Source of the DNA: a phage
Length of the DNA stretch: 64,000 nucleotides
Reading direction: 5' to 3' (one strand)
Sequence record: PZ386969.1
Positions 4,799-18,231 of the stretch are shown here, piece by piece. Within the stretch, counting starts at the first letter, position 1. Every line of letters starts with the position of its first letter. The position numbers and the translations under genes were made by a program. Under the pieces are notes generated by a model. It was given only the letters and a program-made list of their open reading frames with translations. It searched no databases and was not told the origin of the DNA.

Positions 4799-6817
4799 TT
4801 AGAACACAACTTTCACAGTGCGGTTGAAAGAACCGCTCACCTTCACGAACACGTGGTTGCGTTGGGTGGTAGAGAAGCCCAGACCGGACAGCTGCTCAGT
4901 GCTTGGCTGTACTTTAATCTTACCACCTAACATTTCAAAAACCTTGCGGTGTTTATCAAGTTCCGGCTTCAGATATTCGTTATAGAAACCACGGGTGCCG
5001 ACAGGGTTAGCACAACCTTCCAGGATGAAGAACACGTGCTTGTTGCCAGTCTGCTCGCCGTCCCAATGGTTTGGTGAGTTCAGAACCAGCTGTACCTTCT
5101 GGAAGACGGAGGTCTTGATGCCCCAGATTTCCTGAGAGCGAGCGTCGTCTTTCAGGGTAGAACGGATGTCTACCACTTGTCCAGCGCGGACATCAATCAC
5201 AACAGCCAGAGTGCGATCTTTGTGCTTCAGGCCAGGATGCGAAAAACGCTTGGTCTGGCCTTTGTATTCAACTTCGATTTCGAAGCCCATATCACAGGTT
5301 TCACGCTGGCTGAAGTTAGTGACATAGAACTCGTACAGACCATCACGCAGCTTGCGTTCATCGCTGAAGAAGATGTTCTCCACCGGACGGCGGTTTGGAT
5401 CAATGCCGTCCATACCGTTCATGTCGATGTCTAGAGTTGCGCCAGTTGTCGAACGACGGTTGTGATAATACACGTGGTTGTGAAGAGGATCGTTCAGGCT
5501 CAGATCCAGGTCGTCGTTGTTATGCCAAGCCAGTGACACACGGAGGAAGCTGTCGACATTGCCGCCTGCGGTCTTCACGCGCTCTTTGATGGAGTCGGCC
5601 ACTTCGCCATTGTACGACCAGCTGAAGCCGTTGTTCCACTTGAACAGGTTAGGAGCGCCTGCGGTGGCCGGAGCGATCAGGGACATCAGGTTGCCAATGT
5701 GAGAGTTTTCGACCAGCACTTCCAGGGAATGCGCCTTTGGCAACAAGTTGGTCAGGAAGTCGTCGATCGTGATCTCTTCAACCTTGTCCAGGGACTTGGT
5801 CGGAGTCTTCACTTCAGACGCCAGCTGAGCAAACGGGTCCATCTTCTTCTGAGCTGCCAGATCGGCGAACAGAACGTTGTTGATGGTCAGATCGTCATAC
5901 ACGGCATAACGGCGACCCAGTGAATCAGTCAGACCCAGCGCTTCGACTTCTTTCTGCGCGTTTTCAATCATCGACTTCGTGACCAGCGCGGTTGGGCGCT
6001 TGTAGTTCGTCGGAGCGACTTTGGCTTCAAAGGACTTCACGGCGGTTTCCAGATCCCGGCCTTCATTGAGGTCTACCAGCAGAGAGCCAATCACGGTATT
6101 ACGAATGCCGTGAGGGGTATGACCGTTTGCACGGTAGCCAGTGCGCCAAGCCCACAGAGCGCGTTTCTCTTCTGCAGTTTGTTCGTACAGGGTCTTGTTC
6201 ACCACGAACGCCTGCACTGCCGCTTTGTGCTCTTCACCGCGATACAGAGAATTCTGGTCAATCAATTCCAGAACGATTTCAGCCGATTCCAGAGACAGTT
6301 CACGCAGGCCGCGCTCAAACACTTCAATCGCCTGGCGGATTTCACCCTTCTTAGAAGCGATGGTATCTGCCCGCAGAACATAGCTGCCCAGCAGGTCGGT
6401 GTGGAAGTGGTTGTAGGTGCGGACAATACCATCTTTCATTTCGTGATTCGACTCAACACCAACTTTCTTGGTGTCGTTGAAGTACACGTCGACGATTGCG
6501 TGCTGCTTAACGTATGCTGACAGCGCCGCAGCGACAACGTCGTATTCGTTACCCAACTGAATGTTATCCCAGATAGAGATCACGTTCAGGTCGGAGTCGA
6601 TGGTGACCACACCGCCGATGTTACGGATGAATTGTTTACAGCAGGTGCAGTCGTGCTCGGTACGCTCACGATAAAGCGGGTTAGTGCCAGCAGGGAAAGA
6701 AGACAGATACAGATCCCACAGAGCATCTTTATCGATGTTGGTCATGAACAGACCAGTTGCTGACATGGCCAGCACGTTATTGTTGACAGCTACTGCGAAG
6801 GGCTTAAAATCTGACAT
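4799..6817 (-). CDS. large hypothetical protein (672 aa) with N-terminal Cys cluster
   Basis: ATG start with AGGAAG RBS; HDCTCCKQF motif; no P-loop or other catalytic motif recognised. Confidence 0.6.
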   Translation of the reverse strand: MSDFKPFAVAVNNNVLAMSATGLFMTNIDKDALWDLYLSSFPAGTNPLYRERTEHDCTCCKQFIRNIGGVVTIDSDLNVISIWDNIQLGNEYDVVAAALSAYVKQHAIVDVYFNDTKKVGVESNHEMKDGIVRTYNHFHTDLLGSYVLRADTIASKKGEIRQAIEVFERGLRELSLESAEIVLELIDQNSLYRGEEHKAAVQAFVVNKTLYEQTAEEKRALWAWRTGYRANGHTPHGIRNTVIGSLLVDLNEGRDLETAVKSFEAKVAPTNYKRPTALVTKSMIENAQKEVEALGLTDSLGRRYAVYDDLTINNVLFADLAAQKKMDPFAQLASEVKTPTKSLDKVEEITIDDFLTNLLPKAHSLEVLVENSHIGNLMSLIAPATAGAPNLFKWNNGFSWSYNGEVADSIKERVKTAGGNVDSFLRVSLAWHNNDDLDLSLNDPLHNHVYYHNRRSTTGATLDIDMNGMDGIDPNRRPVENIFFSDERKLRDGLYEFYVTNFSQRETCDMGFEIEVEYKGQTKRFSHPGLKHKDRTLAVVIDVRAGQVVDIRSTLKDDARSQEIWGIKTSVFQKVQLVLNSPNHWDGEQTGNKHVFFILEGCANPVGTRGFYNEYLKPELDKHRKVFEMLGGKIKVQPSTEQLSGLGFSTTQRNHVFVKVSGSFNRTVKVVF

Positions 6818-6931: not shown

Positions 6932-8155
6932 TTATTCAGGTTTCTTCAAACGGTCCAGCAAATTGACGGAACCACGTTTGAGCACGACTTCATCACAACG
7001 TTGCTTATACGCACTACCATTCCCGTCATACCCCACCTTTCCTCGAGGTTTCTCCCCGCGCATCACTGCCTCAACACAGCGGGTATATTTCTGAAGTTCA
7101 CAGAACATGTTCTCCAGCTGCATAACATTCATGCAACGATCTTCCGGTTCTTCTGCCGACCAAAATTCATTACGTTTATACCCATACTGAGCGAACAATT
7201 GATCTTGATGATCACGAACCCAGAATATGCATTCTTCATGCGTCATGCCGTCCTTGTCCAAAAATAACAGATCGATACCAGCACGGCAACCTGGACCAGC
7301 GATAGTGAAGTGGTTTTCACTGAATGGATATTCATCGATGTATGTAAAATCAACCCAAATCTGGTATGCCAAGAATGGTCCAAGCCCCTCAATGTCGTCA
7401 TACATCGCCTGGTAAACAGAGTCGGGACGGCTAAATTCCCTGAGGCGATCAAAGTAATGAGGGTGTTTGTTGACGAATGCCTTCAGGGAGCGGATGACAC
7501 GCATTGGCATGTACGGTTCCCAACCTTCGATGGTGTAGAAGTCCGGCTCTGCTTCAGCGATGGCCTTGGCTTCCTTGTAATCCATGTTCTGGGTTGAACC
7601 GTCTTTACAGATCAGATTCACCATCATCCCACCGAAGCGCTGCTCCTTGTGGTTGACAACTAGTTCGGGGAAAGCCAGGCATTGTTTCAGACCGCCTGTA
7701 TTAAACGCATTGGTGAAAACTTTGCCACCTTTAGATTCGAATTCCTGAAGAACACTTCGACACCATTCAAGATTTATGTTTCCGAATTCTTCGATCGTCC
7801 ATGGACCACCCAAAGCCTGTATAGGTTCCCACATGTTGTACATGCGGAACAATACACAGTTGAACATTTTGTCAGATAGCGTGAGATCCTGATTGAGGAT
7901 GATATTATTGATCAAATTTCGAGACTGTCTATCGTGCTCTCTCCGCACGTTACAAAACTTGACTTGGCGTAATACCGGATTATCCGTCCATGGCGCTGGA
8001 AGGCATTGCACGTCCTTCTTGACATGTATCGCATAACGATCCCTCATCCATTCATATGCCAGCTGACGGTGGAATGAACTTAACATAGGATGGGCTGATT
8101 TGATTTTGGTTTCACGGACACCGCAATATGGGATGTCATATGGTTTATCTTTCAT
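6932..8155 (-). CDS. hypothetical protein (407 aa)
   Basis: ATG start with AGAGGA RBS; flanked by terminator hairpins 6848-6868 and 8179-8199; function not recognised. Confidence 0.6.
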   Translation of the reverse strand: MKDKPYDIPYCGVRETKIKSAHPMLSSFHRQLAYEWMRDRYAIHVKKDVQCLPAPWTDNPVLRQVKFCNVRREHDRQSRNLINNIILNQDLTLSDKMFNCVLFRMYNMWEPIQALGGPWTIEEFGNINLEWCRSVLQEFESKGGKVFTNAFNTGGLKQCLAFPELVVNHKEQRFGGMMVNLICKDGSTQNMDYKEAKAIAEAEPDFYTIEGWEPYMPMRVIRSLKAFVNKHPHYFDRLREFSRPDSVYQAMYDDIEGLGPFLAYQIWVDFTYIDEYPFSENHFTIAGPGCRAGIDLLFLDKDGMTHEECIFWVRDHQDQLFAQYGYKRNEFWSAEEPEDRCMNVMQLENMFCELQKYTRCVEAVMRGEKPRGKVGYDGNGSAYKQRCDEVVLKRGSVNLLDRLKKPE

Positions 8156-8178
8156 GGTATCCTCTTAGAATACGAAAA

Positions 8179-8199
8179 CAGAGGCCATTATAGCCTCTG
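8179..8199 (-). terminator. rho-independent terminator
   Basis: Stem CAGAGGC/GCCTCTG followed by TTTTCG on the minus strand. Confidence 0.5.
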
Positions 8200-8223
8200 T
8201 TGTTTAGTGAATAACCGTATATC

Positions 8224-9096
8224 TTAATCGATACGGGTCAGTTGGGTGATAGATGATTGCACTGGGCTGGCCACATAGATACGGACGTTGGCTTTCCATT
8301 CACCCCAGATCAACGGTAGAGTTGGGAAGTTGTCTTCATTGAAAACAAACACGGGAATGTAGCTCTCGACTGTTTCGCCAGAGAACGCCTGGAAGCCCAT
8401 CTTGGTGTATCCCATGATCTCGTCAATAAAATCGAACGGAGCGAAGGCAACACCAGCGTGTTCGTTAGAGCCGAGCTGGCCTGGAATGGCCGTACCCGTC
8501 AGAATGATTTCAGTGATCTGGCGCTTAGGCTCGGCAGTCAGCATATCAGAGAAGTCAGGCTCTTTGAAGGTTGCCATGTTCTTCAGGAACTTGCCAGCCG
8601 GGTATTCTTTGCCGTCGACGGTGATGGTGTCTACCACTTTGATGCACGCCTGAGGGAATTCCCCTTCGATGCGCAGACTTTCGCGTGGGAAGCCTTTGTT
8701 GTAGTAGTAATCCAGTGCAGGCACAACTTCACCTTCATTGCGAATGAACTTGCTCATGTTAGACGCATACACGCGCTGTAGGCATTCGTCGCCGTCGAAA
8801 CCAGCAATATGAGCCAAACCGTCGTTGACTGTTGTGATGTCGCCCTGGGCATCCATGATCTGGCGCATGATGCCTTTGATGTCCACAACGGCAGGTTCTT
8901 TCAGGACTCGTGGAGTTGCAGTGAATTCCACCTTCACATCATGGTCAAAGAACACCGCTTCCAGCAGTTCGCGGGTCTCTTCCAGCACCAGTTTCGCCTG
9001 ATTGCGGATCTTACCAAAGTCAGGCGATGTGACGTCGCCCTTTGCATTACCGAAAGCCAGATTCAGATTCACGTTCTTAGAAAATGTAGTTGTCAT
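8224..9096 (-). CDS. hypothetical protein; N-terminal segment weakly resembles MazG/HisE-type pyrophosphohydrolase helices
   Basis: 290 aa; LVLEETRELLEAV segment; GGAG RBS; weak call. Confidence 0.45.
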   Translation of the reverse strand: MTTTFSKNVNLNLAFGNAKGDVTSPDFGKIRNQAKLVLEETRELLEAVFFDHDVKVEFTATPRVLKEPAVVDIKGIMRQIMDAQGDITTVNDGLAHIAGFDGDECLQRVYASNMSKFIRNEGEVVPALDYYYNKGFPRESLRIEGEFPQACIKVVDTITVDGKEYPAGKFLKNMATFKEPDFSDMLTAEPKRQITEIILTGTAIPGQLGSNEHAGVAFAPFDFIDEIMGYTKMGFQAFSGETVESYIPVFVFNEDNFPTLPLIWGEWKANVRIYVASPVQSSITQLTRID

Positions 9097-14802: not shown

Positions 14803-15255
14803 TTATACACCATCGAGATACTTTCTCCATTCAATAGCATTTTTCACTTCGTATCCCAGTTTGTTCAGGCGATCCAAACAAGTCTCTATGAACTTGACTT
14901 TTGCTTTTTGTTCTTGTAACAGAACAGACAACTCCACATAGTCATCGTCTGCTTTGACCCATGTATCCAGGTCAGACTTCAGGGGGCGAACCTTCAGGGG
15001 GCGCTCTGCGTAGATGTTCGGGGGTAACTCCCCTGCATAGTAGCGGCGCAAATAGAGATCTATCTGACGGAAGCGCCCATTGAGGAATTCAAGATAACGC
15101 CCCTCGCGCAGATAATGCCGCTGTACAGCCATCCAAGAGTGCCCGATTTTCAGCGAGATCTGGTCAAGGTTCATGTCTTCTGGGTCCACTGTGATCAGTG
15201 GCTCCAGTTCGTTCATGATGTCCTCGGTAGCCATTGTCTGTAGTTGTTCTTTCAT
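14803..15255 (-). CDS. hypothetical protein
   Basis: ORF in track; start moved from GTG (15303) to ATG MKEQLQT. Confidence 0.45.
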   Translation of the reverse strand: MKEQLQTMATEDIMNELEPLITVDPEDMNLDQISLKIGHSWMAVQRHYLREGRYLEFLNGRFRQIDLYLRRYYAGELPPNIYAERPLKVRPLKSDLDTWVKADDDYVELSVLLQEQKAKVKFIETCLDRLNKLGYEVKNAIEWRKYLDGV

Positions 15256-15299
15256 AAAATATCCCAGCTTGTCAATGTCATAGAGAATTATACCGCATT

Positions 15300-16103
15300 T
15301 CACTGATTAGAATCAATCGCCTTCCCACCAGATAGTGGAACCAGCTGTTGGAACTTGAAGGTCACTGTCGTCACCAGCTGAGGTACAGCCGCGTCTACGT
15401 CCACCAGTACGTTGTCCAAAGCAGTCGGGCGGGCTTCCTCCAGCACTAGAGTGAGGCCAATCGGTCGGTTGAGGTTATCCAGCAATTCAATGGTAATGTC
15501 CTTGCTGACAGGCAAATCCTTGCCGACGTTGCTGGTAATCCATTGGTGGATCTGTAACCATGATTTCCAGTCCTCGTCTATAACGAAAGTAAATACGACG
15601 GGATCATAGGTTAAACGTTCTGAAGGAATAGAAACCAGTACGTCTCCTGGCGACGGACCATCGATGCCTTCGGAGTACACCCCTGGTATACTGAAGTCGT
15701 GGATGTTACGGGTTAGGAGTACAAGGTCTCCGATAGTCAGACGCCACTTATCGGACGCCGCGAAATTAGGGTTTTCGTTCTTGAATTGTACGTTGGACAT
15801 AATAGCACCTTTGCTGTGGAGATATTTTGTGACCCTGATGCGCGGGATCAGTAGATTGTTGTTGGCATGCTCGATGCTCTTGTTTACGAGCTGTCGTATC
15901 TTTGTCACGCCAATAATTTCTGTTTCCGAACTCTGGACCCCGGAAGTGCGCACCGTACCTGTGATGTTGTCGGCCAGCGTTCCCACTTGTAACAAGGGTA
16001 TGCTGGACATCATCGTGCAAGAGTTCCAGCCCTTCCAGAAGCTCGTACCTTTAGGTTGCTTTGATGAGAACATGAGCACCCTCAAGCCATACTGGAAGAC
16101 CAC
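15300..16103 (-). CDS. hypothetical protein (start uncertain; internal ATG at 15800 also possible)
   Basis: GTG start with GGAGAGG RBS; C-terminal two thirds look protein-like; N-terminal 100 codons ambiguous against an opposite-strand ORF. Confidence 0.45.
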   Translation of the reverse strand: MVFQYGLRVLMFSSKQPKGTSFWKGWNSCTMMSSIPLLQVGTLADNITGTVRTSGVQSSETEIIGVTKIRQLVNKSIEHANNNLLIPRIRVTKYLHSKGAIMSNVQFKNENPNFAASDKWRLTIGDLVLLTRNIHDFSIPGVYSEGIDGPSPGDVLVSIPSERLTYDPVVFTFVIDEDWKSWLQIHQWITSNVGKDLPVSKDITIELLDNLNRPIGLTLVLEEARPTALDNVLVDVDAAVPQLVTTVTFKFQQLVPLSGGKAIDSNQ

Positions 16104-16479
16104 AATTCCTCTCCTGCGGCGTGGCGATGAAGGGAAGATTCCATACCTTTCAGCCAGTATTTATTACTCTCAGAACAACAGCATCATTATCACTTTTAAT
16201 CCATCATTCTATGCCAAGCTGAAGCAACGCATGGTTGGACGACTGGGTACAACATCGGATATAATCGTGACGTTCAAGATCATGAATGACTCAGATAAAC
16301 CAGTACGAATCGCAACTCAGGGTGTGTTCGTTAACAACGACGCGGTTGGAAATGGGATGAGTATCTTTGAAGTTAACCCAGGGGGAACGATCTTGATCAG
16401 ACTGAGTAATGTGGGTGTGAACTCCCTGCTGTTGGATGGCATCGAACCAGTGGGAGTTCTTCCGGCGCGGGAGCACTGA
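16072..16479 (+). CDS. hypothetical protein (135 aa), plus strand, embedded in minus-strand block
   Basis: 3' part of plus ORF 15664..16479 fills a 376-nt gap with no minus ORF; protein-like composition; weak RBS. Confidence 0.3.
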   Translation: MSTLKPYWKTTIPLLRRGDEGKIPYLSASIYYSQNNSIIITFNPSFYAKLKQRMVGRLGTTSDIIVTFKIMNDSDKPVRIATQGVFVNNDAVGNGMSIFEVNPGGTILIRLSNVGVNSLLLDGIEPVGVLPAREH

Positions 16480-17250
16480 TTACTTCAGTGCGTTCTTCAG
16501 ATTATCGGAACCAATGCTGTTGATGACACCTCCGGCGCAGATATCTTTCGCCCACTCTGAGATCACGTTGGCAAAAGAGAAGTTAAGACACTTACCAACC
16601 ATGTCTTGGATATGGGCTAACTCTGCTGCAATACCGTTCGTGATGTCCTGAGCAATAGAGGCTACTGATGCGACAGCAGTGTCGATGGCCTGAGTAACTT
16701 CAGCAGCCAGTGCCCGAATAGCATCAAGACCAGCACTGACACCCTGAGCTACCAATTCAGCCAACTCATTCATCTTGTTTGTGATAGTTGTGAGAACACT
16801 TTGCATGGTATTGATCCACTGTTTGCCGAGGTTCTGAATAACCCCAAATGCATTATTGATCAGGTCACAGTTGTTCGGTTCTCGACCTATAGACTTCAGA
16901 GCGGACTTATAAGACACAGATGTACCGATGCGGGAATATGCCTCGTTCACTGACTGGTCGCCATAGTTGATCAGCGTGGTGATGCTGGTGTTTGCTGAGT
17001 CGAACATCGCCGTAGATTCGTTGAGTTTGGCTACAGTCAACCCACCTGCCGTCAGCGCTTCCTGAATCTGCGTATTTCCGGTGTTAGCCAGTGACGCTGT
17101 AGTCGCCTTACCACTGGTGATTAACCCCTGTGAGGCGCTGCTGAGGGACGGGAGAGGATTGGTAAAGGCGTTGCCCTGCGATAGGGCGTCATAGATCTGT
17201 GCGTTCATAAGAAAATACCCCCATGGATGATGGGGGTATTTAGGGATCAT
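16480..17250 (-). CDS. hypothetical late protein (Ala-rich, helical); alternative start at 17208
   Basis: ATG at 17250 overlaps the stop of an upstream small ORF (ATGA); second ATG at 17208 lies just after a late-promoter hairpin. Confidence 0.5.
   Translation of the reverse strand: MIPKYPHHPWGYFLMNAQIYDALSQGNAFTNPLPSLSSASQGLITSGKATTASLANTGNTQIQEALTAGGLTVAKLNESTAMFDSANTSITTLINYGDQSVNEAYSRIGTSVSYKSALKSIGREPNNCDLINNAFGVIQNLGKQWINTMQSVLTTITNKMNELAELVAQGVSAGLDAIRALAAEVTQAIDTAVASVASIAQDITNGIAAELAHIQDMVGKCLNFSFANVISEWAKDICAGGVINSIGSDNLKNALK
17213..17243 (-). promoter_or_regulatory. late promoter CTAAATACCCCC as 5' arm of a 10-bp hairpin; 3' arm GGGGGTATTT 9 nt before ATG 17208
   Basis: Perfect inverted repeat AAATACCCCC / GGGGGTATTT with 9-nt loop. 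Confidence 0.55.
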
Positions 17251-17417
17251 GGTAGTTTGTAAACGAAGTTGGACCAGAACTTACGAACAAACTTCTTGAC
17301 ATAAACCATTCGGTTGGCGTATTCCCCATCCTTCAGGTCATTGTAGGTCTCGATCCATACCGCGCCCAAGAAGTACGCCGTGAAGATATAGCAGAACAGA
17401 TTGATGACGACAAACAT
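17247..17417 (-). CDS. small membrane protein (56 aa), absent from ORF track
   Basis: ATG with GGAG RBS; MFVVINLFCYIFTAYFLGAVWI hydrophobic helix; stop overlaps next start. Confidence 0.35.
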   Translation of the reverse strand: MFVVINLFCYIFTAYFLGAVWIETYNDLKDGEYANRMVYVKKFVRKFWSNFVYKLP

Positions 17418-17458
17418 GATGTATCTCCGCTGTGTGTACTCAAATTATTTATGATATG

Positions 17459-17881
17459 TTACAAAAGGCGCTTGGTCTTCGGCTTACCCATTAGAGTGAT
17501 ATCCACAGGGAGGCCAGCTTTCTTGCAACGGTTGATCATGTCCAGGGTGCCAGTGGACGAACCATCCCACATCGCAATCGGATACACTTCCAGCTTGGTC
17601 TGCCTGACGAGATCCAATGCCTTGTCTAACATGTCCTGATTGCGTTTGTTGCCCATCCCGTTCCCATACTTTTCATAATAGCTCGGAGGGATCGGCATGG
17701 GGGTGATATGAACATAATTGATTTCAGCCCAATCACGGCAAATCGTGTCGACACCCGTGGCCTCACCCTCGATCAACGTATAGACTTCATGAGGATCGAG
17801 GAGTTCGTCCAGCTTGGCGAATACCTTATCCCGCTCGGTGATTGAGCGGGAACCCGTAATGAGAACGATATACTTCTTCAT
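17459..17881 (-). CDS. hypothetical protein
   Basis: ORF in track; start moved to ATG MKKYIVLITGSR. Confidence 0.45.
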   Translation of the reverse strand: MKKYIVLITGSRSITERDKVFAKLDELLDPHEVYTLIEGEATGVDTICRDWAEINYVHITPMPIPPSYYEKYGNGMGNKRNQDMLDKALDLVRQTKLEVYPIAMWDGSSTGTLDMINRCKKAGLPVDITLMGKPKTKRLL

Positions 17882-17886
17882 AGAAC

Positions 17887-18231
17887 TCACAGCGCCCCAA
17901 GATTGCCGATTACGTACAGGGAGCACAGAGGAGTGCCTGACGAACGAGGTTCGATCGTCATCCCGCTCAGGCGGATCAGTTCCAGTAAGCCGTCAGTGGT
18001 CTGATACGCGCGTGTCGAACCGTTCGGTCGATATAGTTCCAGCTCAGTTCGCCCTTCCTTTAATGCATTTCGAATGCGCGTGAACACGCTGTGGTCGCCG
18101 AACTTCTGTTTCAGAATATCCAGTTTGGTGACCAGGCGACGCGATTTGCGTGGCTTACGCTCGCTCGGCTTTTCGAATTTGACGATGTGGGGGATCTCCA
18201 CGGATTTGTTCAGTTTGGTGTCTGCTGCCAT
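17887..18231 (-). CDS. hypothetical protein (basic)
   Basis: ORF in track with ATG. Confidence 0.45.
   Translation of the reverse strand: MAADTKLNKSVEIPHIVKFEKPSERKPRKSRRLVTKLDILKQKFGDHSVFTRIRNALKEGRTELELYRPNGSTRAYQTTDGLLELIRLSGMTIEPRSSGTPLCSLYVIGNLGAL

Follow-up and report, generated by a model that had tools for sequence, protein, structure and literature searches.

A conserved opposite-strand gene in an Ackermannviridae phage encodes a predicted DUF7424 lipoprotein

Gene 15 of phage HK97 is a superinfection-exclusion moron located between the tail chaperone gene and the tape-measure gene (PMC3594210), and Llp of phage T5 is a lipoprotein that excludes phages (PMC9586334). Llp, as well as Cor of phi80, T1 and N15, are outer-membrane lipoproteins that inactivate the FhuA receptor. 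As cited in PMC3952083 (Bebeacua 2013), the lipoprotein Ltp of the Streptococcus phage TP-J34 blocks DNA entry by way of the incoming tape-measure protein. The gene described here belongs to DUF7424, a family on which a literature search found no paper and no experimentally studied member. It is an ordinary, already annotated gene with a family in Pfam, and its orthologues have been on record since 2011: Ag3 orf00172, CBA120 orf170 and LIMEstone1 ORF128 are direct orthologues of 216-217 aa with 61-98% identity, in the same position and orientation. There is no substantive difference from the members of PF24199 and PHROG 3832, whose annotated starts vary (107 to 221 aa). In GenBank, the gene is given in truncated form or with a wrong start in the records of the closest relatives.

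The window, the whole stretch of 64,000 nucleotides that was analysed (PZ386969.1), comes from an Ackermannviridae (Aglimvirinae) phage and is 97.7% identical to Escherichia phage vB_EcoM-RPN242. The DUF7424 gene is found on the strand opposite to its neighbours, between gp3 and a gene for a DUF7217 virion protein. The gene order exonuclease-UvsY-gp3 followed by the plus-strand gene is kept even in Vibrio and Aeromonas phages, where identity falls to 24-25%. The features of the locus are:

15300-15800, minus strand: gp3-like tail completion protein or sheath stabiliser, true extent, 166 aa from ATG 15800 (phrog_45 and comparison of starts)
15801-15828, between the strands: divergent spacer of 28 bp with two back-to-back ribosome-binding sites (cross-genus comparison)
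15818-15822, plus strand: Shine-Dalgarno sequence GGAGA, 6-7 nt upstream of GTG 15829
15829-16479, plus strand: DUF7424 lipoprotein precursor, complete coding sequence, 216 aa, GTG start and TGA stop (homology, conserved GTG, dN/dS)
15829-15894, plus strand: putative signal peptide with lipobox (MTLMRGISRLLLACSMLLFTS-C22), the Cys22 codon being 15892-15894 (PROSITE PS51257-type pattern)
15892-16476, plus strand: predicted mature lipoprotein, 195 aa, about 21.6 kDa, pI 8.5 (AlphaFold2 and protein properties)
16072-16479, plus strand: the 135-aa reading of the first-pass annotation, which is the C-terminal 63% of the gene from an internal Met (partial profile matches)
16473-16491, both strands: hairpin GCACTGA-ttact-TCAGTGC over both convergent stops (folds in both strands, conserved)
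16480-17250, minus strand: DUF7217 virion protein, convergent neighbour (PF23854, 306.6 bits)

The whole protein matched DUF7424 (PF24199) at 189.9 bits (E 5e-56) over model positions 2-196 of 196, that is, above the curated gathering threshold of 27 bits and over most of the 196-position model, by which membership was judged. It matched phrog_3832 at 316 bits (E 2e-94, positions 1-214 of 216), and the part encoded by 15829-16071 was sufficient by itself for a match to this profile (E 1e-26). Searches of PADLOC and NCBIfam with the product gave no match. Using tblastn, the gene was found in 292 phage records, with homologues down to 24% identity; it appears near-universal in Ackermannviridae, judged from these 292 records with the number of genomes in the family left uncounted.

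When compared with Ag3, dN/dS in the plus frame was 0.12-0.40 in both halves of the gene, with a value of 0.16 for 15829-16071, and the differences were located mostly at third codon positions (3, 2, 11 and 2, 7, 21 by codon position). By these measures purifying selection is acting on both gene halves in the plus frame. GTG 15829 is the sole start codon kept across genera, no ATG being present at the start position in Kuttervirus, Miltonvirus and Nezavisimistyvirus, and the GGAGA motif is invariant in an upstream alignment of six genera. The resulting 216 aa is the length called for most database homologues. The first-pass annotation had suggested a possible opposite-strand gene where the minus-strand block has a gap. 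This suggestion is borne out by the homologues, the conserved synteny and the signature of purifying selection, which show that 15829-16479 (+) is a genuine protein-coding gene.

Bacterial lipoproteins are matured by Lgt, LspA and Lnt and are sorted by the Lol pathway. A positively charged n-region, an uncharged hydrophobic h-region and a lipobox cysteine at positions 15-35 were used to recognise lipoproteins, and the N-terminus of the product, MTLMRGISR-LLLACSMLLF-TS-C22, conforms to the type-II pattern (PROSITE PS51257 type). Equivalent signal peptides were found in Ag3, CBA120, Magnus, Serratia 2050H1, Erwinia Bue1, Vibrio K364 and Aeromonas phiA8-29; across eight genera, at identities as low as 24%, the signal peptide is retained, and so are two further invariant cysteines of the mature protein, Cys54 and Cys77. 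Cys22 is the sole invariant column in an alignment of 62 family sequences, and a lipobox is also present in 70 of 84 distant full-length members. Residue -3 of the lipobox is Phe in the clade of the window and Leu in most relatives. Position +2 is Arg in all 42 close homologues that match the lipobox pattern, out of 52 full-length ones. LIMEstone1 ORF128 carries the annotation "putative signal peptide present", and some Kuttervirus records read "putative lipoprotein".

The AlphaFold2 model obtained with distant homologues added to the input reached a pLDDT of 87.3 and a pTM of 0.84, an earlier model from 19 close sequences having been poor (pLDDT 63.6). The mature protein is predicted to be mixed alpha/beta with a beta-rich C-terminal half. 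A structure search with the confident model found no solved structural relative, and in BFVD the matches were to DUF7424 family members alone. We regard the gene model (GTG 15829, 216 aa) and the lipoprotein nature of its product as highly probable. Conserved and, by prediction, exported and lipid-anchored, the protein would act in the envelope of the host rather than in the virion.

More distant loci were searched for using an alignment of a 14-sequence subgroup of the family as the query. Distant DUF7424 lipoproteins are encoded by chromosomal genes of diderm bacteria. In Gilliamella, which has tandem paralogues, and in an alphaproteobacterium, they occur amid plain housekeeping genes, so the ancestral role of the family need not concern phages. 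The family itself is cellular, made up of lipoproteins of diderm bacteria, and phages have captured it more than once.

The DUF7424 gene adjoins the tape-measure gene in prophages of at least five temperate myovirus lineages. At one of these loci (L011, from Pasteurellaceae) it comes with a promoter-like site, a GC dip and a hairpin, and at another (L031) with a promoter-like site and a terminator; the dip, seen in one of these two lineages, is 0.29-0.33 against 0.40-0.45 in the flanks. A moron is an independent transcription unit added to a phage operon, for which a promoter and terminator of its own and a composition unlike that of the flanks were looked for; the window gene has a conserved 3' hairpin but no recognisable promoter and no GC deviation. 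The occurrence of the same family as a self-contained insert beside the tape-measure gene in unrelated prophages provides a lead on its function. A tape-measure-like nature of the DUF7217 neighbour, which would equate the Ackermannviridae and prophage contexts, was rejected, since a comparison with five tape-measure proteins encoded next to DUF7424 genes revealed no real similarity. Weak PHROG matches of the DUF7217 protein (E about 0.004) look compositional, and in most relatives its gene starts at 17208.

In the mechanism that we propose, the N-terminal 21 residues would serve as a type-II signal peptide, leading to Sec export, lipidation on Cys22 and cleavage. Because +2 is Arg and not Asp, Lol is predicted to deliver the protein to the outer membrane of the infected cell, where its 21.6-kDa mixed alpha/beta domain would lie in the periplasm; Cys54 and Cys77 probably form a disulfide. 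Superinfection exclusion or entry blocking at the level of the envelope would be the most likely job and is our best guess, held tentatively. When a related phage comes in, its tail tip or tape-measure protein may be intercepted in the periplasm, or, as an alternative route, a secondary outer-membrane receptor may be masked from inside. The infecting phage would thereby be spared wasteful reinfection and the loss of progeny on cell debris. The action of TP-J34 Ltp on the tape-measure protein, as that work is cited, provides a rationale for the linkage between DUF7424 and tape-measure genes.

Sequence and fold comparison found no relation to the characterised superinfection-exclusion lipoproteins (Llp of T5, Cor and Ltp). 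The evolutionary rate of the gene is ordinary and does not exceed that of the neighbouring genes, which is unusual for a factor engaged in an arms race. It is conceivable, if doubtful, that DUF7424 constitutes a large class of outer-membrane lipoproteins, carried by phages and so far overlooked, that stop myovirus infection at its periplasmic stage, the passage of the tail tip or tape-measure protein; the class would be of cellular origin, a core gene in lytic Ackermannviridae and a tape-measure-linked moron in temperate myoviruses of Proteobacteria. An exclusion role, if true, would extend the entry-blocking proteins by a new structural class and would bear on the design of cocktails that include Ackermannviridae, phages in wide use against Salmonella, E. 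coli O157, Klebsiella and Dickeya.

The same gene model could also serve another job in the envelope, either conditioning of the envelope of the infected cell or, in prophages, a host-fitness function like that of lambda Bor. Envelope targeting fits this equally well, and the chromosomal non-prophage copies and the Gilliamella paralogues suggest a cellular role borrowed by phages; core-gene status and the ordinary evolutionary rate also favour a housekeeping-type target over an arms race. This reading leaves unexplained, however, why the gene adjoins tape-measure and baseplate-hub genes in independent prophage lineages, and a benefit of the serum-resistance type would make no sense for strictly lytic phages. 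We consider it possible, though on balance rather unlikely. Candidates for envelope conditioning are stability until lysis, a blocked outer-membrane export or import machine and a countered envelope-based host defence.

A role as a virion or tail-assembly component would be suggested by the position among tail genes. In the window both flanking genes encode virion proteins, and in prophages the gene is embedded in tail modules. The DUF7217 product was found in virions as LIMEstone1 ORF129 and Sajous1 gp166, and the gp3 of LIMEstone1 (ORF127, 18.5 kDa) is a confirmed virion protein. The DUF7424 protein, by contrast, is missing from two published virion proteomes in which both neighbours were detected: ORF128 is not listed for LIMEstone1 while ORF127 and ORF129 are, and gp167 is not listed for Sajous1 while gp166 and gp168 are, which is negative evidence only. 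An exported, lipid-anchored protein would moreover be barred from tail assembly in the cytoplasm, and the gene is oriented against its neighbours and, in two prophage lineages, comes with a promoter-like site and a terminator of its own. A structural role is therefore most improbable.

An outer-membrane lipoprotein, as predicted here, of a lytic phage with Gram-negative hosts could also be a lysis component, either the outer-membrane subunit of a spanin or an accessory. The 195 mature residues with a globular alpha/beta fold are unlike the short, proline-rich o-spanins, and the gene is flanked by gp3 and a virion-protein gene, with no i-spanin, holin or endolysin gene beside it. Both the length and the lack of an adjoining i-spanin gene depart from what defines Rz1-type o-spanins, short outer-membrane lipoproteins whose genes lie inside, overlap or adjoin an i-spanin gene in a lysis cassette. 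In relatives the spanins are encoded elsewhere (Sajous1 gp49 and gp50, compared with gp167 for the DUF7424 gene). We consider this assignment very unlikely.

The remaining alternatives concern the gene itself. The first-pass annotation had placed a 135-aa protein at ATG 16072, facing a long gp3 (257-267 aa, 5' end at 16073 or 16103); the GenBank annotation of RPN242 carries the same error, a long gp3 and a truncated plus-strand gene. Much of what was said of the 135-aa product holds. It is protein-like, and by itself it matches DUF7424 (E 7e-40) and phrog_3832 (E 4e-61). Its frame ends exactly where the next minus-strand gene ends, TGA 16477-16479 abutting the stop codon 16480-16482; 16104-16479 contains just trivial minus-strand ORFs of 41 and 61 aa; and the ribosome-binding site, described as weak, is indeed poor, ATG 16072 having no Shine-Dalgarno sequence. 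The start is what fails. ATG 16072 encodes an internal Met, residue 82 of 216, and the 135-aa part covers just positions 61-196 of 196 in DUF7424 and 81-214 of 216 in phrog_3832, whereas in the 271-aa ORF the family profiles already match from residue 59 on for PHROG and from residue 80 on for Pfam. A 135-aa product would lose the lipoprotein signal peptide.

The gene was cut to 135 aa because the over-long minus-strand ORF, extending to 16103, had been taken as the real gp3. Both ORFs are open in the window and in its closest relatives, and the phrog_45 alignment of the long ORF nominally starts at residue 62. The upstream extension of gp3 (about 101-120 codons) is, however, open just in the clade of the window; in Ag3, CBA120, Magnus, 2050H1, Bue1, K364 and phiA8-29, representing seven other genera, it is closed by stops after 1-16 codons. 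ATG 15800 and its AAAGGTG motif are conserved everywhere, the short form of gp3 keeps 115 of 121 bits against phrog_45, a PHROG search with the 101-aa extension alone found no match, and the virion gp3 of LIMEstone1 is the short form. In addition, 15829-16071 is under plus-frame purifying selection and encodes the conserved signal peptide. The model of a 135-aa protein with a long gp3 is thus already contradicted by the comparative data, and we give it hardly any credence.

By the same comparison gp3 starts at ATG 15800 and not at 16103. With the plus-strand gene starting at 15829, both genes therefore diverge from a 28-bp spacer, in which CACCTTT (15806-15812) corresponds to AAAGGTG for gp3 and GGAGA serves the plus-strand gene. 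The spacer measures 28-34 bp and has the same two motifs in every enterobacterial genus compared. The gap free of minus-strand genes consequently spans 15801-16479 (679 nt), and not 376 nt as had been reported. The view that 15664-16071 is antisense to a real minus-strand gene stands for 15664-15800 and falls for 15829-16071, which is genuine plus-strand coding sequence. For the whole clade this gives a corrected gene model, with the GTG 15829 start and gp3 shortened to 166 aa.

The hairpin over the convergent stops recurs at the same position in other genera, and Ag3 shows a compensatory change (GCGCTGAA/TTCAGCGC). Its counterparts in Magnus and in the Serratia and Vibrio phages have GC-rich stems followed by a clear T-run, and in the Erwinia phage the T-rich tail behind the stem is weaker and interrupted; the element is annotated as stem_loop or terminator in Ag3 and Magnus. 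It is likely to be a two-way terminator-like element, judging from its sequence and conservation. When 15000-16800 was scanned with the sigma-70 consensus, no site was recognised upstream of the plus-strand gene; promoters of Ackermannviridae are not known (PMC3184105). TATAAATA was absent from the whole window, and the upstream alignment of six genera displayed just the codon periodicity of gp3, with no promoter signal. TAAATA boxes, annotated as a -10 motif in LIMEstone1, occur at 15590 (+) and 16158 (-), and their wobble-site conservation (rough p 0.06) is merely suggestive. A literature search found no Ackermannviridae transcriptome (RNA-seq), and the review of the family mentions none.

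That no plus-strand promoter was found, and that in Ackermannviridae the gene is known from sequence alone, would suit a chance antisense frame or a non-coding gap (regulatory region or RNA gene), but the match to a curated Pfam family at E 5e-56, homologues that keep the same three cysteines at identities as low as 24%, the third-position-dominated substitutions and the confident predicted fold make this negligible, and the RNA gene was rejected, as an Rfam scan of 15000-17500 gave no match.

Compared with the known systems, the predicted DUF7424 lipoprotein resembles each of them in part. TP-J34 Ltp, as far as the citing paper describes it, differs in having a Gram-positive host, in being surface-exposed and helical, in being encoded in a lysogeny module and in its unrelated sequence and fold. 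Llp and Cor are, like the DUF7424 protein, phage lipoproteins in Gram-negative hosts with genes beside tail or receptor-binding genes, and T5 is, like the window phage, strictly lytic (PMC9586334, PMC3594210); Llp has about 60 mature residues compared with 195, with no match in sequence or fold. Unlike the DUF7424 protein, HK97 gp15 is a small inner-membrane protein and no lipoprotein, without sequence similarity, and the window gene differs from gene 15 in its opposite strand, its ordinary GC content and its lytic phage. The prophage DUF7424 genes resemble gene 15 in architecture, as small envelope-protein genes adjacent to the tape-measure gene that in two lineages come with a promoter-like site and a terminator of their own and in one of these with deviant GC; DUF7424 has cellular homologues as gp15 has YebO (PMC3594210).

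A plus-strand reading frame runs from 15664, its first start codon, to the TGA at 16479 (271 aa), within a 2.1-kb stretch that is 97.7% identical to Escherichia phage vB_EcoM-RPN242, 88% to Shigella phage Ag3 and Salmonella phage SKML-39 and 80-90% to Dickeya Limestone-type phages, all Ackermannviridae of the subfamily Aglimvirinae. The genes for UvsW helicase, an exonuclease, UvsY and gp3, all on the minus strand, are followed by the plus gene and then by a minus-strand DUF7217 gene:

15300-15800, minus strand: gp3, tail completion and sheath stabiliser, ATG at 15800 (relatives' starts and PHROG)
15829-16479, plus strand: DUF7424 lipoprotein gene (Pfam, PHROG and conserved GTG)
16473-16491: 7-bp hairpin at the 3' end of the plus gene, spanning both stop codons
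16480-17250, minus strand: DUF7217 gene, virion protein, convergent with the plus gene; PHROG 289 positions 250-500
17247-17417, minus strand: 56-aa ORF, phrog_4845, between both PHROG 289 parts
17459-17926, minus strand: PHROG 289 positions 9-146

The first-pass annotation had placed here a protein-like 135-aa product starting at ATG 16072 behind a weak ribosome binding site. The product indeed matches DUF7424 (E 7e-40) and phrog_3832 (E 4e-61), its TGA directly abuts the end of the minus gene at 16480, and 16104-16479 holds only 41-aa and 61-aa ORFs on the minus strand, so what had been seen is present in the sequence. No ribosome binding site precedes ATG 16072, and the 135-aa product covers just the C-terminal two thirds of both profiles. 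In the 271-aa ORF, DUF7424 positions 2-196 align from residue 80 and phrog_3832 positions 1-214 from residue 59; therefore the gene must start well upstream of 16072. The gene is real and was spotted correctly, although it was delimited wrongly.

The upstream part of the frame (15664-16071) had been regarded as antisense to a real minus gene. This holds only for 15664-15800; 15829-16071 is coding in the plus frame. Compared with Ag3, differences by codon position were 3, 2 and 11 for 15829-16071 (codon-aligned dN/dS 0.16) and 2, 7 and 21 for 16072-16476 (0.12). Against other genera dN/dS was 0.2-0.4 wherever dS was unsaturated, and the N-terminal 81 aa alone matched phrog_3832 (E 1e-26).

Both starts were assigned by comparing the locus in 10 relatives from 8 genera: RPN242, CECAV_050, Ag3, CBA120, Sajous1, Klebsiella Magnus, Serratia 2050H1, Erwinia Bue1, Vibrio K364 and Aeromonas phiA8-29. 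In every genome gp3 starts at an ATG preceded by a Shine-Dalgarno motif: AAAGGTG in the window and the other enterobacterial genera, AGGAG in K364 and GGGTG in phiA8-29. A 120-codon upstream extension, giving a 267-aa ORF, stays open in the clade of the window alone; it is stopped after 1-16 codons in Ag3, CBA120, Sajous1, Magnus, 2050H1, Bue1, K364 and phiA8-29. Searched alone against PHROG the extension had no match, the 166-aa gp3 retains 115 of 121 bits to phrog_45, and the gp3 confirmed in LIMEstone1 virions is the 18.5-kDa short form (published proteome); the 267-aa form was rejected on these grounds. The GenBank record of RPN242 over-extends gp3 to 257 aa.

For the plus gene, every genome encodes a charged, then hydrophobic leader reaching a lipobox cysteine 19-23 codons after the start codon (LFTSC in the window, LLTSC in Ag3, ALTSC in CBA120, VLTSC in Magnus, LIGGC in Serratia, FVSGC in Erwinia, LISSC in Vibrio, VLISC in Aeromonas). 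The only start kept in the six enterobacterial genera compared is a GTG, at 15829 in the window with GGAGA at 15818-15822. ATG 15838 was rejected, being absent in Kuttervirus, Miltonvirus and Nezavisimistyvirus. The resulting 216 aa is the length called by most gene callers in public databases; GenBank relatives carry at least five different starts (107 to 216 aa), and calls other than 216 aa remove or shorten the signal peptide. The records concerned are, in coordinates of the relatives' loci:

L001 (RPN242), 1599-2778
L003 (CECAV_050), 2299-2778
L005 (Magnus), 1415-2026
L007 (Bue1), 1726-2049
L008 (K364), 1522-2079

With starts at ATG 15800 and GTG 15829, gp3 and the plus gene diverge from a 28-bp spacer, 15801-15828 (28-34 bp across the enterobacterial genera compared). 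It holds little beyond two opposed, back-to-back Shine-Dalgarno sequences, so each promoter must sit within the opposite gene or at a greater distance.

The literature search found no transcriptome for any Ackermannviridae, and the CBA120 paper did not identify promoters at divergence points. No sigma-70-like site was found upstream of the plus gene, and TATAAATA is absent from the whole window. On the minus strand 16158-16165 reads AATAAATA, 7/8 of the T4 late-promoter consensus, within lipoprotein codons 110-113 (AGT ATT TAT TAC). Among 46 codons comparable across five genera six are identical, three of them clustered at 16158-16165 (rough p 0.06). Lying 358 nt ahead of the gp3 ATG, the site could serve gp3 as an embedded late promoter; such a promoter would be needed there if the 16473-16491 hairpin terminates minus-strand transcripts arriving from upstream. 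A TAAATA box at 15590-15595(+), antisense within gp3 and about 235 nt ahead of the start of the lipoprotein gene, is a weak candidate promoter for the plus gene; four genera share the codons beneath it (GTA TTT ACx), but Erwinia Bue1 does not.

A hairpin occurs at the equivalent place in other genera, with a compensatory change in Ag3, and is annotated as stem-loop or terminator in two records. A GC-rich stem is followed by a clear T-run in Magnus, Serratia and Vibrio; the T-rich tail is weaker in Erwinia.

In 16480-17926, matches to PHROG 289 ('GTP-binding domain', 500 positions) are divided between two minus-strand genes; the family was assembled from fused forms, or else a single ancestral gene has come apart at this locus. 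For the DUF7217 half, a virion protein, the 'GTP-binding' label seems to lack support. In Vibrio phage K364 (L008 2092-3417) a homing-endonuclease gene, directly convergent with the lipoprotein gene, takes the place of the DUF7217 gene of enterobacterial Ackermannviridae.

The plus gene is the orthologue of Ag3 orf00172, CBA120 orf170 and LIMEstone1 ORF128. The last has carried the annotation 'putative signal peptide present' since 2012, and 'putative lipoprotein' appears in some Kuttervirus records; hence the gene was already known and ordinary. What is brought out here is a corrected gene model for the window's clade, the lipoprotein signature across the whole DUF7424 family, and DUF7424 as a tape-measure-associated moron in prophages, the latter a generator of hypotheses and no finding about the window.

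The precursor carries a conserved type-II signal peptide and matches the PROSITE PS51257-type lipoprotein pattern, with Arg at residue +2 in all close homologues that fit the pattern. The +2 rule, established for Enterobacteria, governs Lol-dependent lipoprotein sorting, and with Arg at this place it predicts that Lol delivers the protein to the outer membrane. Judged from sequence, the precursor would be exported, then lipidated, and probably anchored in the outer membrane with a domain in the periplasm. Cys54 and Cys77 are invariant even in the most distant relatives, which is compatible with a disulfide bond forming in the oxidising periplasm. An AlphaFold model from 19 close sequences was poor (pLDDT 63.6); with distant homologues added (pLDDT 87.3, pTM 0.84) it showed a mixed alpha/beta fold with a beta-rich C-terminal half, matching only other DUF7424 proteins in a viral structure library.

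The product was not found in virions: two published proteomes detected what both flanking genes encode, ORF127 and ORF129 in LIMEstone1 and gp166 and gp168 in Sajous1, and do not list the orthologues ORF128 and gp167. This absence, negative evidence only, is consistent with a protein sited in the envelope of infected cells.

An exhaustive profile search gave 87 representative clusters, nearly all of 190-240 aa. The lipobox is present in 70 of 84 distant full-length members, and its cysteine is the sole invariant column of a 62-sequence alignment. Distant members occur in two settings, next to the tape-measure gene in temperate myovirus prophages and at ordinary chromosomal positions, so that DUF7424 appears to be a family of cellular lipoproteins from diderm bacteria, acquired repeatedly by phages:

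Pasteurellaceae prophage: tape-measure, DUF7424, Dit-like
Mu-like element: tape-measure, DUF7424, baseplate hub
Gilliamella: DUF7424 between ribonucleotide reductase small chain (nrdB) and GlnD
Alphaproteobacterium: DUF7424 between MalQ and SerS
Gilliamella sp. wkB112 (L044), 6001-6645 and 7891-8535: near-tandem DUF7424 paralogues

Three further prophage arrangements place DUF7424 beside the tape-measure gene, and the family extends to Halomonas, Paracandidimonas and Spirochaetia. Several copies lie on the chromosomes of bee-gut Gilliamella, including loci L040 and L042 of Gilliamella sp. wkB308, and at least some of them have housekeeping genes (nrdB, glnD) as neighbours and are not in prophages. 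The Pasteurellaceae gene shows a GC dip (0.29-0.33 vs 0.40-0.45) and lies between a promoter-like site immediately before it and a palindromic hairpin immediately after it; in the Mu-like element a promoter-like site is combined with a clean intrinsic terminator. Morons classically have this arrangement.

The plus gene itself shows no compositional deviation in the window. Its product is 61, 67, 42 and 38% identical to those of CBA120, Magnus, 2050H1 and Bue1, against 61, 65, 47 and 45% for DUF7217, that is, it evolves at about its neighbours' pace. Ordinary composition and pace fit an old, fixed core gene.

PADLOC and NCBIfam searches with the product gave no match, and the literature search found no paper mentioning DUF7424. 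By analogy, envelope-level superinfection exclusion or entry blocking is tentatively put forward as the likeliest single function. Some other conditioning of the envelope is nearly as likely. No similarity of the product to known exclusion proteins was found, and this, the ordinary evolutionary rate and the homologues in housekeeping context count against exclusion. A spanin role is unlikely for this lipoprotein, as is a virion role, given the two proteomes.

Exclusion is suggested because phage lipoproteins of known role in Gram-negative hosts mostly act in this way (T5 Llp, Cor), and because the recurrent prophage linkage to tape-measure and hub genes mirrors HK97 gp15 and, for the tape-measure gene, Ltp. 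In a passage of PMC3952083 citing Bebeacua 2013, the target of Ltp is the tape-measure protein. HK97 gene 15, the first moron described, excludes superinfecting phages and occupies the same position beside the tape-measure gene as the prophage DUF7424 genes (PMC3594210).
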